Shown: positions 38,638 to 63,946 of the stretch, one piece after another | Layout of the letters: each line of letters starts with the position of its first letter | Position numbering within the stretch: the stretch's first letter is position 1 | From: Pseudomonadota bacterium | GTDB lineage: Bacteria > Myxococcota_A > UBA9160 > PR03 | Length of the DNA stretch: 64,000 bases | NCBI GenBank assembly: GCA_003576805.1 | Contig: QEVM01000013.1 | Location: 1,221 to 65,220 of the forward strand | Reading direction: 5' to 3' | Made by a program: the position numbers and the translations under genes | The notes under the pieces: generated by a model | The model's input: only the letters and a program-made list of their open reading frames with translations | Database searches by the model: none | What the model was told of the DNA's origin: nothing

Positions 38638-38654
38638 CGGCACACGGTCTGCAT
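38638..38654 (+). promoter_or_regulatory. sigma54-type (-24/-12) promoter candidate for the long rightward gene train
   Basis: cGGCACAcggtcTGCATt: GG at 38639-38640, GC at 38651-38652, correct 12-nt register. It lies about 40 nt upstream of the first gene. A sigma54 activator gene sits in the same train. Confidence 0.6.
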
Positions 38655-38692
38655 TTCGATTCTCCGTCAACGCAGTAGCGCGGAGAATTCCC

Positions 38693-39037
38693 TTGTTGTT
38701 CGCGGTCATCATCGACGAAGCATCGGCGAATGGTCACGACGCGATCGCGAAATATCGCGATGCGCGGCGCGCCCTGCTCGAAAGCCTGCAGAAGCGCGGG
38801 ATCTTGCTGTTCGAGGGGACGCTCGGCGACTCCGGCAGCATGATGATCCTCGAGGCCGAGTCGACCAACGACGTCCTGCACGTCCTCCAGCGGGATCCCA
38901 CGGTGATCCTGCCCTTTCCCAACCGCGTCGTGATCCGACCGCTCACCGTGAACGTGGTCGGCGATTGGTCGGCGCTCACCGGGTCCGTCCATCCCGCCGT
39001 GGCGTCCGCCGCCACGCGAGGAGTCACCACCTCTTGA
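38693..39037 (+). CDS. YciI-like family protein
   Basis: Start placed at TTG 38693, 7 nt after GGAG. The in-frame upstream part of ORF 38423 has only about 50% GC3, versus over 90% downstream. FAVIID...ARRALLESLQKRGILLFEGTLGDSGSMMILEAES...LQRDP fits the YciI pattern. Confidence 0.6.
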   Translation: MLFAVIIDEASANGHDAIAKYRDARRALLESLQKRGILLFEGTLGDSGSMMILEAESTNDVLHVLQRDPTVILPFPNRVVIRPLTVNVVGDWSALTGSVHPAVASAATRGVTTS

Positions 39038-39576
39038 AGCTCGAGATCAGCTCCGAAGTCCTCCCGCATCCGCCGCAGCAGGTGTGGAACCTGCTGCTCG
39101 ATCCGACGGTGCTCTCGCGCCTGCTGCCCGGCGTCGAGAAGTTCGACGCGGTCGGGCCGGACTCCTACGAGGTCGTCGTGAAGCTCGGCGTCGGCGCCGT
39201 GCGCGGCACCTACAACGGCAAGGTCCAGCTCACCGACCAGCAGCCGCCGTCCAGCTACAAGCTGAAGGGCGAGGGCAAGGGCGCGCCGGGCTGGGCCAAG
39301 GGCGAAGTGCTCTTCAGCCTGATCCCCGAAGCGGGCGGCACGCGGGTCAACGCCAAGGCGGACGCGCAGATCGGCGGCGCGATCGCCGGCGTGGGCCAGC
39401 GCATGATCGAGGGCGTCGCCAAGAGCATGGCGCGCGAGTTCTTCTCCGCGGTCGGGCGCGAGCTCGCCGGACAGAAAGTGCAGGTGAGCCAGGCCGGCAT
39501 GGGCTTTCGGCTCTTCATCCGCATCGTCCGCGACTTCTTCGCCTGGCTCTTCGGGCGCGGAGCCGGAGCGAAGTGA
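39034..39576 (+). CDS. CoxG-like SRPBCC protein
   Basis: TTG 39034 overlaps the upstream stop (TTGA), with AGGAG upstream. (M)KLEISSEVLPHPPQQVWNLLLDPTVLSRLLPGVEKFD...GGAIAGVGQRMIEGVAKSMAREFF matches the CoxG family. The C-terminal tail is hydrophobic and amphipathic. Confidence 0.8.
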   Translation: MKLEISSEVLPHPPQQVWNLLLDPTVLSRLLPGVEKFDAVGPDSYEVVVKLGVGAVRGTYNGKVQLTDQQPPSSYKLKGEGKGAPGWAKGEVLFSLIPEAGGTRVNAKADAQIGGAIAGVGQRMIEGVAKSMAREFFSAVGRELAGQKVQVSQAGMGFRLFIRIVRDFFAWLFGRGAGAK

Positions 39577-39625
39577 ATGAGGCTCTCGACCATCGAATCG
39601 CTGTCGACCAGGAGGTGACGTCCGC

Positions 39626-61669: not shown

Positions 61670-61686
61670 TCGAGGAGAGAGCCGCG

Positions 61687-62856
61687 ATGCCGTTTCGAGC
61701 CCCCGACTACTACGCGATCGAGGAGCTGCTCACCGACGAAGAGCGCCAGGTGCGCGACACCACGCGCCGCTTCGTCGACGAGGAGTTCATGCCGCGCATC
61801 GTCGAGTCGTACCGGGCCGGTACGTTCCCGAACGAGCTGATCCCGCGCATCGCGGAGCTCGGCCTGTTCGGACCGACGCTGCCCGAGGAGTACGGCTGCG
61901 CGGGCGTCAGCAGCGTCGCGTACGGGCTGATCTGCCAGGAGCTGGAGCGCGGCGACAGCGGCCTGCGCTCGTTCGCGAGCGTGCAGTCGAGCCTGGTGAT
62001 GTACCCGATCTGGGCGTTCGGCTCGGACGAGCACAAGAAGAGCTGGCTGCCGCGCCTCGCGAAGGGCGAGGCGATCGGCTGCTTCGGGCTCACCGAGCCC
62101 GACTTCGGCTCGAATCCGTCCGGCATGCGCACCACGGCGCGCCGCGCCGACGGCGGCTTCGTGCTCGACGGCGTGAAGCGCTGGATCACCAACGGCAACC
62201 TCGCCGACGTCGCCGTCGTCTGGGCGCGCCTCGAGGACCAGATCCACGGCTTCCTGGTCGAGACCGACCGGCCCGGCTTCACCGCCGAGGAGATGCACGG
62301 CAAGCTCTCGCTGCGCGCGTCGGTGACGTCCGAGCTCTTCCTCGAGAACGTCTGGATCCCGGCCGAGAACCACCTGCCGGGCTCGGGCCGCATGAAGGCG
62401 CCGCTCTCGTGCCTCTCGAACGCGCGCTACGGCATCTCGTGGGGGGCGCTCGGCGCCGCGATGAGCTGCTACGACACCGCGCTCGAGTACGCCAAGGGCC
62501 GCGTCATGTTCTCGCGCCCGATCGCCGGCTACCAGCTCGTGCAGCGCAAGCTGGTGGAGATGATCACCGAGATCACGAAGGGCCAGCTCCTCGCGCTGCG
62601 CCTCGGCCGCCTGAAGGACGCCGGCAAGGTGCGCCCCGAGCAGATCAGCATGGCCAAGATGAACAACGTGTCGAAGGCGCTGGCGATCGCGCGCGAGGCG
62701 CGCGACATCCTCGGCGGCAACGGCATCATGGACGAGTATCCGATCATGCGGCACATGGTGAACCTCGAGACGGTCAACACCTACGAGGGCACCGAGGACG
62801 TGCACCGGCTGATCATCGGCAAGGACATCACGGGCTTCGACGCCTTCGGCGCCTGA
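61687..62856 (+). CDS. gcdH: glutaryl-CoA dehydrogenase
   Basis: GAGGAGAG RBS. GCAGVSSVAYGLICQELERGDSGLRSFASVQSSLVMYPI, CFGLTEPDFGSNPSGM, LSCLSNARYGISWGALGAA and NLETVNTYEGTEDVH closely follow GCDH sequences as I recall them. Confidence 0.88.
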   Translation: MPFRAPDYYAIEELLTDEERQVRDTTRRFVDEEFMPRIVESYRAGTFPNELIPRIAELGLFGPTLPEEYGCAGVSSVAYGLICQELERGDSGLRSFASVQSSLVMYPIWAFGSDEHKKSWLPRLAKGEAIGCFGLTEPDFGSNPSGMRTTARRADGGFVLDGVKRWITNGNLADVAVVWARLEDQIHGFLVETDRPGFTAEEMHGKLSLRASVTSELFLENVWIPAENHLPGSGRMKAPLSCLSNARYGISWGALGAAMSCYDTALEYAKGRVMFSRPIAGYQLVQRKLVEMITEITKGQLLALRLGRLKDAGKVRPEQISMAKMNNVSKALAIAREARDILGGNGIMDEYPIMRHMVNLETVNTYEGTEDVHRLIIGKDITGFDAFGA

Positions 62857-62891
62857 CCCACCGCAACCGCCACCACGCGAGGATTCCTCCC

Positions 62892-63233
62892 ATGCCCTCG
62901 CCTCCGACGCTGGGATTCGAGACGCACGACGTGCTGCGCCAGGCCGCGGCTTGGCGCGACGAGAAGCAGGGCGTCGCGCTCGCGACCGTGGTCGAGACGT
63001 GGGGCTCGTCGCCGCGCCCGATGGGCAGCCGGCTCGCCGTGAACGAGCAGGGCGCCTTCGTCGGCTCGGTGTCGGGCGGCTGCGTCGAGGGCGCGGTCGT
63101 CGAGGAGGCGCTCGGCGTGATCGCGTCGGGCGAGCCCAAGATGCTCGAGTTCGGCGTGACCCACGAGATGGCGTGGGAGGTCGGGCTCGCCTGCGGCGGC
63201 CGCGTGCGCATCTTCGTGGAGCGCGTCGAATGA
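62892..63233 (+). CDS. XdhC/CoxI N-terminal-domain protein (split XdhC, part 1)
   Basis: 113 aa from ATG 62892. ATVVETWGSSPRPMGSRLAV...GSVSGGCVEGAV matches the XdhC_CoxI domain only. Confidence 0.8.
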   Translation: MPSPPTLGFETHDVLRQAAAWRDEKQGVALATVVETWGSSPRPMGSRLAVNEQGAFVGSVSGGCVEGAVVEEALGVIASGEPKMLEFGVTHEMAWEVGLACGGRVRIFVERVE

Positions 63234-63946
63234 AGCGCGCGACGCTCGACGCGCTGCTCGCCGACCGCGCGGCCAAGCGCAGCGCGGTCCTCGTCACCAA
63301 TTTGAAGAGCGGCGAGGAGTGGCTGCTCCATCCCGACGCCGGCGACGCCGCCCCGCCCGGGCTCGAAGCCGAGGTCGCCGAGGCGCTCGCGCACGACGCG
63401 AGCCGCACCGTCGAGACGCCCGACGGCGCCTGGTTCGTGCAGCCCTTCCAGACGCCGGTGCGGCTCGTCGTGGTCGGCGCCGTCCACATCGCGCAGCCGC
63501 TCGCGGAGATGGCGGCGCTCGCCGGGCTCGACGTCGTGGTCGTCGATCCGCGCACCTCGTTCGCCAGCGAGGCGCGCTTCCCGAACGTGCAGCTCGTCAC
63601 GCTCTGGCCGGACGAGGCGCTCGCGCAGCTCGCGCCCGATCGGCGCACCGCGATCGTGACGCTCACCCACGATCCCAAGCTCGACGACCCGGCGCTCTGC
63701 GCCGCGCTGCGCTCCGAGTGCTTCTACGTCGGCTCGCTCGGCAGCCGCAAGACGCACGCCGCGCGCCTCGGCCGCTTGCGCAAGGAAGGCTTCAGCGACG
63801 AGGAGCTGGCGCGCATCCGCGGGCCGGCCGGTCTCTCGATCGGCGCGCGCACGCCCGCCGAGATCGCGATCTCGATCGCGGCGCAGATCGTGGAGTGCCT
63901 GCGCGCGGCGCCGGGCAAGACGGGCGACGCCGCCGCACCCGCCTGA
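63230..63946 (+). CDS. XdhC Rossmann-like C-terminal-domain protein (split XdhC, part 2)
   Basis: ATG 63230 overlaps the upstream stop (ATGA). LVVVGAVHIAQPLAEMAALAGLDVVVVDPR...YVGSLGSRKTHAARL...GLSIGARTPAEIAISI. Confidence 0.8.
   Translation: MKRATLDALLADRAAKRSAVLVTNLKSGEEWLLHPDAGDAAPPGLEAEVAEALAHDASRTVETPDGAWFVQPFQTPVRLVVVGAVHIAQPLAEMAALAGLDVVVVDPRTSFASEARFPNVQLVTLWPDEALAQLAPDRRTAIVTLTHDPKLDDPALCAALRSECFYVGSLGSRKTHAARLGRLRKEGFSDEELARIRGPAGLSIGARTPAEIAISIAAQIVECLRAAPGKTGDAAAPA

Follow-up and report, generated by a model that had tools for sequence, protein, structure and literature searches.

What is a long train of molybdenum (Mo) hydroxylase genes for, when it carries accessory genes resembling those of CO dehydrogenase (CODH) and encloses an outer-membrane gene pair? 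The question is raised by a 64,000-nucleotide stretch of contig QEVM01000013.1 (assembly GCA_003576805.1), hereafter the window, from an uncultured bacterium; among named organisms, Candidatus Binatia metagenome-assembled genomes (MAGs) hold the nearest relatives of the locus. In this window, which has a G+C content of ~71% and whose raw open reading frame (ORF) lists consist mostly of spurious frames, genes were called by third-position GC (GC3) and annotated with Pfam, NCBIfam and PDB sequence searches. The train in question occupies positions 38693-63946 and comprises 23 genes, all on the + strand, with 4-nt start/stop overlaps at 7 of its 22 junctions and other gaps mostly of 13-55 nt. The overlap count uses a start of the second FAD-subunit gene re-set to 55706 after comparison with a related locus, L004 (related loci are cited by our own numbers). 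A first-pass annotation had proposed this gene list and order on a single strand, with many 4-nt overlaps; all of this was reproduced, as were its gene names when the ORFs of the train were annotated with profiles.

We consider it likely that the train is the larger part of a functional island, reaching upstream to ~25.7 kb and spanning ~38 kb in all (about 25.7-64 kb), for a pyridine-type N-heterocycle (e.g., nicotinate or a hydroxypyridine) in an uncultured Binatia-like bacterium. An N-heteroaromatic substrate had been the best guess from the first reading, and it is backed by a homologue of the dioxygenase NicX, an NCS1-like permease, and cyclase and amidase genes; further, none of the large hydroxylase subunits has the CODH active-site loop. 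The island is large and probably under sigma54 regulation. Its features are listed below in positional order within each part, with L, M and S denoting the large, FAD and 2x[2Fe-2S] subunits of the hydroxylases.

Train, 5' part
38638..38653, +: candidate sigma54 -24/-12 promoter, cGGCAC-acggt-cTGCA, 40 nt before the YciI-like start
38693..39037, +: YciI-like, first gene of the train (Pfam YCII 21.7 bits, below the gathering score)
39034..39576, +: CoxG-like SRPBCC protein (Pfam COXG 91 bits)
39626..40495, +: FAD subunit M1 (FAD_binding_5, CO_deh_flav_C)
40530..41012, +: 2x[2Fe-2S] subunit S1 (Fer2, Fer2_2)
41034..41921, +: MoxR/CoxD-like AAA+ ATPase 1, AAA1 (AAA_5, AAA_3; MadB-family 273 bits, below cut-off)
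41918..43195, +: CoxE-like VWA protein 1, VWA1 (VWA_CoxE 164 bits)
43232..44334, +: DUF1329/LolA-like periplasmic protein (AmeB-like) with signal peptide, disrupted (Pfam)
44774..46474, +: DUF1302 outer-membrane beta-barrel (AmeA-like), 566 aa (Pfam DUF1302 52 bits)

Train, middle part
46652..49066 (alternative start 46610), +: Mo-hydroxylase large subunit L2 (three xanthine oxidase-family domains; QorL 1t3q 618 bits)
49101..50249, +: XdhC-family molybdenum cofactor (Moco)-insertion chaperone, full length (XdhC_CoxI, XdhC_C)
50246..51253, +: luciferase-like (LLM) oxidoreductase (Bac_luciferase 236 bits)
51274..52173, +: MoxR/CoxD-like AAA+ ATPase 2, AAA2 (AAA family; 60% identity to AAA1)
52170..53303, +: CoxE-like VWA protein 2, VWA2 (VWA_CoxE 177 bits)
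53328..55709, +: Mo-hydroxylase large subunit L3 (best PDB match CoxL 8uem, 506 bits)
55706..56557, +: FAD subunit M2, 283 aa, 4-nt overlap (start from the L004 gene call)
56554..57075, +: 2x[2Fe-2S] subunit S2 (Pfam)

Train, 3' part
57089..57403, +: FmdB-family zinc-ribbon protein (Zn_ribbon_8; TIGR02605 59 bits, above cut-off)
57459..58376, +: cyclase-family (PF04199) metal-dependent hydrolase, candidate lactam/ring hydrolase (Pfam)
58422..60014, +: GAF - sigma54-interaction AAA+ - HTH_8 enhancer-binding protein (Sigma54_activat 226 bits, GAF, HTH_8)
60014..61669, +: NCS1-like inner-membrane permease, 551 aa, ~11-12 transmembrane segments (no Pfam match; NCS1 30 bits)
61687..62856, +: glutaryl-CoA dehydrogenase GcdH (PDB 2eba 496 bits; human GCDH 446 bits)
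62892..63946, +: split XdhC, N-domain ORF 62892-63233 and Rossmann-domain ORF 63230-63946 with a 4-nt overlap (Pfam)

Upstream part of the island
25684..28212, -: MMPL/HAE3-type RND inner-membrane transporter (AmeD-like), last in the L1 operon (Pfam MMPL; best NCBIfam family HAE3, 126 bits)
28432..29244, -: alpha/beta-hydrolase, candidate N-formylmaleamate deformylase (PcaD/RutD-like, below cut-offs)
29241..29894, -: isochorismatase-family amidohydrolase, NicF-like or carbamoylsarcosine-amidase-like (PDB 26st 244 bits; 3ot4/3uao 149 bits)
29896..32292, -: orphan Mo-hydroxylase large subunit L1 (QorL 644 bits)
32493..33683, +: Rieske non-haem-iron oxygenase alpha subunit (best PDB match CntA, 148 bits)
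33692..34726, +: NicX-type 2,5-dihydroxypyridine 5,6-dioxygenase homologue, 344 aa (PDB 7cn3, E = 4.8e-88)
34744..36018, +: secreted VWA protein, VWA0 (Sec-type signal peptide)
36015..37436, +: amidase-signature amidase (Pfam Amidase 411 bits; AtzE-like, below cut-off)
37510..38424, -: 3-hydroxybutyryl-CoA dehydrogenase, divergent from the train (NCBIfam 376 bits, below the cut-off of 408)

Elsewhere in the window, outside the island, are genes for a PEP-CTERM protein (4411-5466), an LLM monooxygenase adjoining a cytochrome P450 (6444-8989) and a DMSO-reductase-family molybdopterin oxidoreductase (10337-12568), the last a second Mo-enzyme class nearby; these genes at 4-13 kb are unrelated to the train.

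The Mo hydroxylases

Each of the three large subunits contains the Ald_Xan_dh_C, MoCoBD_1 and MoCoBD_2 domains of Pfam, and the enzymes are of the heterotrimeric L/M/S type, with two complete sets and one orphan large subunit. In the active-site loop, where CODH has VAYRCSFR, L1 reads VYRGVGAP, L2 VYRGVGLP and L3 AYRGYGKE, the latter two exactly as quoted in the first-pass annotation, and the cysteine of the CODH loop is absent from all three. In alignment, the YRGVG of L2 falls opposite the YRGVG of quinoline 2-oxidoreductase (Qor) and the YRCSFR of Oligotropha carboxidovorans CoxL (1n5w). The catalytic glutamine and glutamate (Q224 and E743 in Qor) are retained: L2 has TSTQMP and GMGEGG as compared with TATQMP and GMGESA in Qor, L3 has STQNP and GVGES, and L1 has SSQMQ and GAGEG.

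The best PDB matches are QorL (1t3q) for L1 and L2 and CoxL (8uem) for L3, at the scores listed above, and 6-hydroxypseudooxynicotine dehydrogenase (7dqx) scores 408-444 bits against L1-L3. The CODH models reach 558-589 bits versus a cut-off of 991 (TIGR02416) and 575-681 bits versus a cut-off of 950 (NF040766), and NCBIfam supplies no equivalog-level name for any hydroxylase subunit. Judged from these residues and scores, the L1-L3 hydroxylases are not Mo-Cu CODHs. The presence of MoxR, VWA and XdhC genes together, noted at first reading as classically described for Mo-Cu CODH, does not speak for that enzyme specifically, as CoxD/CoxG-like ORFs and XdhC also occur in the pAO1 nicotine cluster (PMC6214936, PMC2997495).

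The absence of detectable Tat or Sec signals from the hydroxylase subunits indicates that the enzymes are cytoplasmic and rules out a periplasmic hydroxylase. A further identity, 4-hydroxybenzoyl-CoA reductase, which would have pointed to anaerobic benzoyl-CoA metabolism as the source of glutaryl-CoA, was likewise rejected: L1-L3 score 262-309 bits to 1rm6 versus 450-640 bits to Qor/CoxL, and the M subunits are of normal length.

Identities between the paralogues are 49% for L1/L2, 41% for L2/L3, 60% for AAA1/AAA2 and 37% for VWA1/VWA2, values that indicate old duplications of both the hydroxylases and their accessory proteins. The island has three L subunits versus two M/S pairs. In L004, where all of these genes have one orientation, L1 precedes the only M1/S1 pair and L2 follows it, a layout that suggests that L1 and L2 share M1/S1.

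Candidate pyridine-ring genes and the probable substrate class

The 344-aa protein encoded at 33692..34726 has no match in Pfam or NCBIfam; its full-length match to PDB 7cn3 identifies it, at the level of homology, as a NicX-type 2,5-dihydroxypyridine dioxygenase homologue. Its orthologues, at 63-68% identity, adjoin hydroxylase genes in gammaproteobacterial MAG loci, and the pairing with the Rieske oxygenase gene is kept in nine MAG loci. On the opposite strand, L1 is followed by the genes for the isochorismatase-family protein, the alpha/beta-hydrolase and the MMPL transporter. The alpha/beta-hydrolase and the isochorismatase-family protein, both co-oriented with L1, are candidates for NicD and NicF, respectively, the latter scoring 244 bits with an N-carbamoylsarcosine amidohydrolase (26st) versus 149 bits with 3ot4/3uao, which we take to be Bordetella NicF entries. 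Of the maleamate-pathway genes that the earlier statement places next to the train, the NicX homologue is thus present, with tentative candidates for NicD and NicF; the 64 kb of the window yielded no candidates for NicC and NicE, and NicX is paired with a Rieske oxygenase instead. The gene for VWA0 lies between those for the NicX homologue and the amidase, and a counterpart of it, at 41% identity, occupies the equivalent place in L004.

Within the train, the acyl-CoA dehydrogenase is, going by its closest matches, a true glutaryl-CoA dehydrogenase. The 551-aa membrane protein is predicted to be a divergent NCS1 (purine-cytosine permease-like) transporter; its homologues are named purine-cytosine or cytosine permease in their source databases, and a PDB sequence search with it returned no matches. 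Pfam has no model for this permease family, whose detectable homologues number only ~40 and are for the most part Binatia-like. The protein ends in a Cys-rich cytoplasmic tail of ~50 residues (CGVCSSEFHRSDFADCPFHSVWICSYCCMSELRCKTVC), which is zinc-ribbon-like and unusual for NCS1 transporters. The cyclase shares 58-61% identity with plasmid-borne 'cyclase family' genes that adjoin amidase genes in Aminobacter and Rhizobium, and there is precedent for such an enzyme in the PF04199 cyclase of pAO1, for which hydrolysis of 2,3,6-trihydroxypyridine, the reaction of HpoH in Rhodococcus, has been proposed (PMC6214936). The LLM oxidoreductase, copies of which are multiplied in L004 and L020, passes the cut-off of the F420-dependent LLM family TIGR03619 (173.9 vs 166.9 bits), a score that hints at F420 use outside Actinobacteria and archaea.

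For 6-hydroxynicotinate, three fates have been described: conversion to 2,5-dihydroxypyridine, a second Mo-dependent hydroxylation, and a route in which reduction precedes hydrolysis and oxidation via glutarate (PMC3511419, PMC9304392). Pieces of all three routes are present in the island. On present homologies, a pyridine-type N-heterocycle is well supported as the substrate class, and the island most likely degrades such compounds with several Mo hydroxylases that do not act on CO.

Probable sigma54 control

The site at 38638 (cGGCAC-N5-cTGCA), put forward at first reading as a sigma54-type promoter, is not significant when taken alone: the window contains 26 two-mismatch matches to the consensus versus 47.5 expected. 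Its position, however, is conserved. All four related loci compared (the window, L020, L024 and L035) have a -24/-12 element ahead of YciI, reading TGGCAC-N5-gTGCA in L020, TGGCAT-N5-gTGCA in L024 and TGGCAT-N5-aTGCT in L035, at 45-79 nt from the gene, as against a background of equally good sites of ~1-2% per 40-nt slot. The element is kept although the YciI proteins of these three loci are only ~50% identical. Further, YciI directly follows the genes for the GAF-sigma54 activator and the NCS1-like permease in L020 and L024, whereas a few genes separate it from them in L035; the activator adjoins the NCS1-like gene in all three. Such conservation makes sigma54 control of the YciI-led unit a well-supported prediction.

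A second candidate promoter before the activator gene (58367-58381, +, CGGCAC-N5-CTGC) was rejected, the motif not being conserved in L020, L024 and L035; it is situated partly within the 3' end of the cyclase gene, 40 nt before the activator gene. On the - strand, a one-mismatch -24/-12 match (38439-38453, CGGCAC-N5-TTGC) lies ~14 nt upstream of the ATG of the 3-hydroxybutyryl-CoA dehydrogenase gene (38424) and, if functional, would yield a near-leaderless transcript. The 200-nt region between L1 (-) and the Rieske gene (+) contains two divergent sigma70-like matches (at 32291-32414; two found, 0.4 expected), on account of which the L1-amidohydrolase-hydrolase-MMPL and Rieske-NicX-VWA-amidase operons may not be sigma54-dependent.

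The envelope genes

The first-pass annotation had placed an uptake-type outer-membrane pair between the M/S subunits and their presumed L subunit. The placement stands, but the published evidence favours export or tolerance, and the island also encodes an HAE3/MMPL pump (25684-28212). DUF1302 corresponds to AmeA (outer membrane) and DUF1329 to AmeB (LolA-like, periplasmic) in cassettes whose other members are a BNR protein and an HAE3 RND pump (PMC6394551; bioRxiv 10.1101/072470). In Castellaniella, AmeABCD lies in a monoterpene island, and its deletion lowers tolerance and raises dye accumulation (PMC6394551). In Shewanella and Pseudomonas the four cassette genes are cofit, and export of an envelope (cell-wall) component has been proposed; islands for phenanthrene and p-cresol, too, include members of the cassette (bioRxiv 10.1101/072470; see 10.1101/2020.07.04.188060). 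Therefore, the DUF1302/DUF1329 pair is not a known uptake system, and its presence inside a catabolic island is not new in itself.

By homology, the DUF1302, DUF1329 and HAE3-MMPL proteins of the island would form an AmeABD-like envelope system. Scores of 52 and 35 bits to the DUF1302 and DUF1329 models of Pfam mark a divergent subfamily, and no BNR/COG4447 domain (AmeC) was found in the called genes of the window or of the related loci examined. The pump gene is 15 kb from DUF1302/DUF1329 and on the opposite strand in the window, whereas DUF1329-MMPL-DUF1302 is contiguous in most gammaproteobacterial MAG loci. The AlphaFold2 (AF2) model of DUF1302 is a large beta-barrel (pLDDT 65, pTM 0.67); a fold search with it found only generic porin/AlgE barrels with low TM-scores, which fits either direction of transport.

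The presence and order of DUF1302 agree with the first reading, but the gene most likely starts at 44774 rather than 44402. Homologues are ~566 aa long, one (P0001) being 100% identical, and a signal peptide directly follows the ATG at 44774; the N-terminal extension from 44402 is conserved only in part in P0002, which is 87% identical. This in-frame extension (44402-44773), of which only the last ~45 codons are kept in P0002, has a moderately high GC3 and encodes a signal-peptide-like segment as well as a hydrophobic run with basic residues behind it (VPAPPMLALLAALAALGAATARWFRSG), which recalls a PEP-CTERM-type tail. It is probably a non-coding leader.

The DUF1329 gene of the window carries a 97-nt deletion at 44230/44231 relative to L028, L029 and L030, three independent assemblies of the same population that are otherwise 100% identical over 5-9.8 kb; identical DNA is present in the Logan assemblies of runs SRR7051042, SRR7051044 and SRR7051045. 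With the 97 nt the gene encodes an intact protein of 399 aa; without them it is frameshifted, with a stop at 44236 and the last 33 codons (44233-44334) out of frame. No direct repeat is visible at the junction, and the deletion either arose through misassembly of the deposited MAG contig or marks a variant strain. In L020 (9633-9890), VWA1 and DUF1302 are kept with no room between them for DUF1329.

Related loci

Homologues of the window DUF1302 (50-60% identity) come almost only from MAGs of uncultured Gammaproteobacteria and Binatia. The DUF1302 subfamily stands beside CoxG-M-S-L in 16 of the 20 informative reference-MAG loci, often with Rieske-NicX, a linkage for which no published description was found. 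The usual gammaproteobacterial order is DUF1329-MMPL-DUF1302-CoxG-M-S-L, followed by Rieske-NicX or AAA-VWA, and such units (L003/L015, L006, L026) are flanked by NAD- and nicotinamide-salvage genes, namely those for NAMPT, PRPP synthetase, inosine-uridine nucleoside hydrolase, QRPTase, CinA and nitrile hydratase. Several of these gammaproteobacterial MAGs bear names (APA_bin_93, RHO3_bin_19, Plut_88898) that presumably denote bins of sponge or coral symbionts. The embedded order CoxG-M-S-AAA-VWA-DUF1329-DUF1302-L recurs in L004/L005 and L024, and in L020 without DUF1329. Hence, the earlier view that this layout is tied to no characterised hydroxylase locus stands insofar as no characterised system was found, but the layout is not unique; it recurs, only in uncultured genomes and with no characterised member. 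Conservation of the gene set while its order is fluid points to functional coupling rather than chance insertion.

The closest comparison is L004, which preserves nearly the whole train at 54-81% amino acid identity and has L1, the isochorismatase-family gene and the alpha/beta-hydrolase gene on the same strand. L034 has NCS1-gcdH-XdhC(N)-XdhC(C), with the same split of XdhC, followed by MMPL, and also contains a MocA-like gene. Near their permease and hydroxylase genes, L034 (8241-10814) and L035 (13436-16265) carry PxpABC-like 5-oxoprolinase genes (LamB_YcsF, CT_C_D, CT_A_B), accompanied in L035 by a biotinyl-carrier protein gene; these are a candidate lactam-opening module, replacing or standing beside the cyclase. 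At the head of the train, the YciI-like protein retains 47-53% identity in L020 and L024, the YCII gene adjoins DUF1302 in L035, and CoxG, as called independently in L001 and L002, is 180 aa long and has the 4-nt overlap.

Alternative explanations

Several observations weigh against the island being a single pathway for pyridine-type compounds. Among PDB entries, the isochorismatase-family protein matches N-carbamoylsarcosine amidohydrolase better than NicF. The 64-kb window contains no candidate for a NicC-type monooxygenase or maleate isomerase, no glutarate CoA-transferase/ligase or enoyl-CoA hydratase (crotonase), and no recognisable 6-hydroxynicotinate reductase or enamidase of the Eubacterium barkeri type. 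No enzyme reaches an equivalog cut-off, so that the exact substrate is not identified. Modules are shuffled between loci, in that gammaproteobacterial loci lack the L3 set and L034 and L035 have PxpABC-like genes in place of the cyclase; the island may therefore serve more than one substrate. The gaps on either side of DUF1302, 440-540 nt from DUF1329 and 177 nt to L2, leave a single 25-kb transcript unproven. On the other side, no terminator-like hairpins were found on the + strand between 44 and 64 kb, although in a high-GC genome this is weak evidence. Finally, DUF1329 may be dispensable or loss-prone in this lineage, given that it is frameshifted in the window and absent from L020.

Against this background, what the enzymes act upon could be read in three other ways. 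It is very improbable that they are 'form II' CO-dehydrogenase-like enzymes oxidising trace-gas CO. The form II motif is AYRGAGR, which the L3 loop AYRGYGKE resembles, and CODH models are among the top NCBIfam matches. The CoxG-, CoxD-, CoxE- and XdhC/CoxF-like accessories likewise recall the O. carboxidovorans cox cluster (PMC2997495, PMC4240915), but the scores fall well under the CODH cut-offs (e.g., 585-681 vs 950-991 bits), the Cu-site Cys is absent, L1 and L2 are closer to Qor than to any CoxL, and the surroundings (NicX, Rieske, amidases, cyclase, nucleobase-type permease) are heterocycle-catabolic. Another heterocycle, with the NicX route as a side branch, is unlikely, though less so; examples would be quinoline or isoquinoline, a purine or methylxanthine, creatinine-related compounds, and cyclic imides or lactams (glutarimide, valerolactam). 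This reading draws on Qor as the best structural relative of L1 and L2, the N-carbamoylsarcosine amidohydrolase match, an NCS1 family that transports nucleobases and hydantoins, the C5 skeleton that gcdH indicates, and the PxpABC-like lactamases of L034 and L035. Yet characterised NicX enzymes are all specific for cleavage of 2,5-dihydroxypyridine, NicX stands beside the hydroxylase in many loci, and the gammaproteobacterial loci are bordered by nicotinamide/NAD-salvage genes (NAMPT, PRPP synthetase, QRPTase, CinA). Somewhat more credible, while still on the unlikely side, is a mosaic of two or three separately expressed catabolic modules with different substrates, for example Qor-like L1/L2 with the maleamate route, L3-M2-S2-cyclase for another heterocycle, and a general gcdH/hbd module for fatty acids or lysine. 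Varying module content (only one hydroxylase set in the gammaproteobacterial loci, extra L and LLM copies in L020, PxpABC-like genes in L034 and L035), the wider spacing of genes around DUF1302, the second, non-conserved -24/-12-like site before the activator gene and the divergent transcription of hbd all fit such a mosaic. It sits poorly with L004, where L1...L2...L3-M2-S2 share a strand and follow one another in unchanged order at 54-81% identity, with the short gaps and 4-nt overlaps joining L2-XdhC-LLM-AAA2-VWA2-L3-M2-S2, with the position of gcdH, which in two loci has the pathway permease on one side and an XdhC chaperone on the other, and with the adjacency of the enhancer-binding protein, NCS1 and the YciI train in L020 and L024.

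Independently of the substrate, the DUF1329/DUF1302/MMPL genes may be an Ame-like system for efflux, tolerance or envelope maintenance, exporting toxic hydroxypyridine intermediates, pigments or an envelope lipid, an explanation to which we give only slightly less than an even chance. The only experimental data for this cassette type are the lower tolerance and greater dye accumulation of the AmeABCD deletion mutant (PMC6394551) and a cofitness read as the export of some component of the cell wall (bioRxiv 10.1101/072470). Export or tolerance (e.g., against auto-oxidising hydroxypyridines) is at least as likely as uptake, because a separate, NCS1-like inner-membrane importer is already present in the island, HAE3 RND pumps are proton-driven exporters, and DUF1329 is frameshifted here and missing in L020, a loss easier to tolerate in an accessory tolerance system. 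Conversely, the linkage of this subfamily to hydroxylase, NicX and NAD-salvage genes is tighter than expected of a general tolerance system, and the implied substrates are polar, unlike monoterpenes; the generic AF2 barrel fits either direction.

Comparison with characterised systems

In its logic the island is closest to the nic cluster of pAO1, in sequence to Qor, and in its lower pathway to the nic/maleamate genes. The pAO1 cluster of Paenarthrobacter nicotinovorans brings together two L/M/S Mo hydroxylases (NDH and KDH), CoxD/CoxG-like ORFs, XdhC, the PF04199 cyclase and an omega-amidase, and its proteins are nicotine-induced (PMC6214936, PMC2997495). However, it belongs to a Gram-positive host, is without outer-membrane genes or sigma54 control, and lacks the NicX, Rieske, gcdH, duplicated AAA/VWA pairs and third large subunit of the island; the similarity is at the family level only. 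QorMSL of Pseudomonas putida 86 (1t3q), the best solved relative of L1 and L2, shares the YRGVG loop, the glutamine, the glutamate and the three-subunit architecture, again at the family level, but the island has no quinoline lower-pathway genes and differs in its accessory and transport genes. With the nic genes of P. putida KT2440 the island shares a NicX-type dioxygenase and, as candidates, NicD and NicF; there, by contrast, NicAB is a two-subunit, cytochrome c-containing hydroxylase, as opposed to the L/M/S type, and NicC and NicE are present, in place of which the island has a Rieske oxygenase. The KT2440 regulators are NicR/NicS-type repressors, whereas the island has a sigma54 enhancer-binding protein. 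We also take the KT2440 cluster to include a dedicated porin, nicP, and a transporter, nicT, which would be a precedent for an outer-membrane gene in a pyridine cluster.

The nicotinate pathway of Azorhizobium caulinodans and E. barkeri, via tetrahydro-6-oxonicotinate, likewise begins with a Mo-dependent hydroxylation, and in Azorhizobium the carbon passes via glutarate (PMC3511419). Unlike this pathway, the island has no recognised 6-hydroxynicotinate reductase or enamidase, and the LLM oxidoreductase and the cyclase could be their substitutes only by pure inference. The Azorhizobium route, in work of Kitts et al. from 1992, reportedly runs via glutaryl-CoA and 3-hydroxybutyryl-CoA, matching the gcdH and hbd of the island.

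AmeABCD of Castellaniella defragrans and the cofit clusters of Shewanella and Pseudomonas share with the island a DUF1302, a DUF1329 and an HAE3 RND protein inside a catabolic island (PMC6394551; bioRxiv 10.1101/072470). The island differs in having no AmeC, a pump gene 15 kb away, a divergent subfamily, and genes for polar N-heterocycles rather than a hydrophobic terpene or aromatic context. The cox cluster of O. carboxidovorans has the L/M/S subunits, CoxD, CoxE, CoxF/CoxI (XdhC-like) and CoxG in common with the island (PMC2997495, PMC4240915), which is set apart by the missing Cu-binding Cys, scores below the CODH cut-offs, the absence of the membrane proteins CoxB, C, H and K, and its catabolic context. 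Distinctive of the island, then, are the linkage of a BNR-less DUF1329/DUF1302/HAE3 subfamily to a hydroxylase and NicX, the duplicated CoxD/CoxE-like pairs with Cu-free enzymes, and GAF-sigma54 control.

Proposed working and implications

From the observed gene content, active-site residues, homologies, promoter conservation and synteny, we infer a substrate class, subunit pairing, reaction order and transport direction for a pathway acting on pyridine-type compounds. The GAF-domain enhancer-binding protein would sense an effector and activate the sigma54 promoter before the YciI-like gene, and the NCS1-like permease would carry the substrate across the inner membrane. In the cytoplasm, the Qor/'CoxL-like' non-CODH hydroxylases, namely L2 with M1+S1, L3 with M2+S2, and L1 probably sharing M1+S1, would hydroxylate ring carbons next to the nitrogen to yield pyridones (lactams); the two CoxD/CoxE-like AAA+/VWA pairs and the XdhC copies would mature their Mo sites, and CoxG may tether them to the membrane. 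Two routes onward can be envisaged. In one, the Rieske oxygenase would make 2,5-dihydroxypyridine, NicX would cleave it, and the alpha/beta-hydrolase and the isochorismatase-type amidase would finish the maleamate route. In the other, the LLM oxidoreductase, the cyclase-family hydrolase and the amidase would open a reduced or trihydroxylated ring to a C5 dicarboxylate, which GcdH and 3-hydroxybutyryl-CoA dehydrogenase would finish. DUF1302, DUF1329 and HAE3/MMPL could be an envelope system dedicated to the pathway, for entry of the substrate or export of a toxic intermediate or pigment.

The locus is otherwise a fairly typical large catabolic island and contradicts nothing in current understanding. 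CoxL-like genes with CoxD/E/G accessories are, however, usually read as aerobic CO dehydrogenases in metagenome studies, and the occurrence of such sets in probable heterocycle islands of Binatia-like and gammaproteobacterial MAGs would bear on inferences of trace-gas oxidation. Additionally, two CoxD/CoxE-like pairs beside enzymes without a Cu site would imply a role for these proteins in maturation beyond Cu insertion, e.g., in sulfuration or Moco handling.

DUF1302 and DUF1329 are widespread and have mutant phenotypes but no known biochemical function, and a pathway-linked subfamily of them would give a testable substrate class. A more far-reaching conjecture, doubtful at present, is that the BNR-less DUF1302/DUF1329/HAE3 subfamily is a dedicated trans-envelope system for polar pyridine or NAD-derived heterocycles, which co-evolved with a CoxG-anchored, CoxD/CoxE-matured non-CODH hydroxylase and NicX in uncultured Binatia and Gammaproteobacteria. 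If true, this would be the first substrate-defined role for the two DUFs, possibly including RND-linked uptake, and many of the 'coxL/CODH' calls in these MAGs would be heterocycle hydroxylases.

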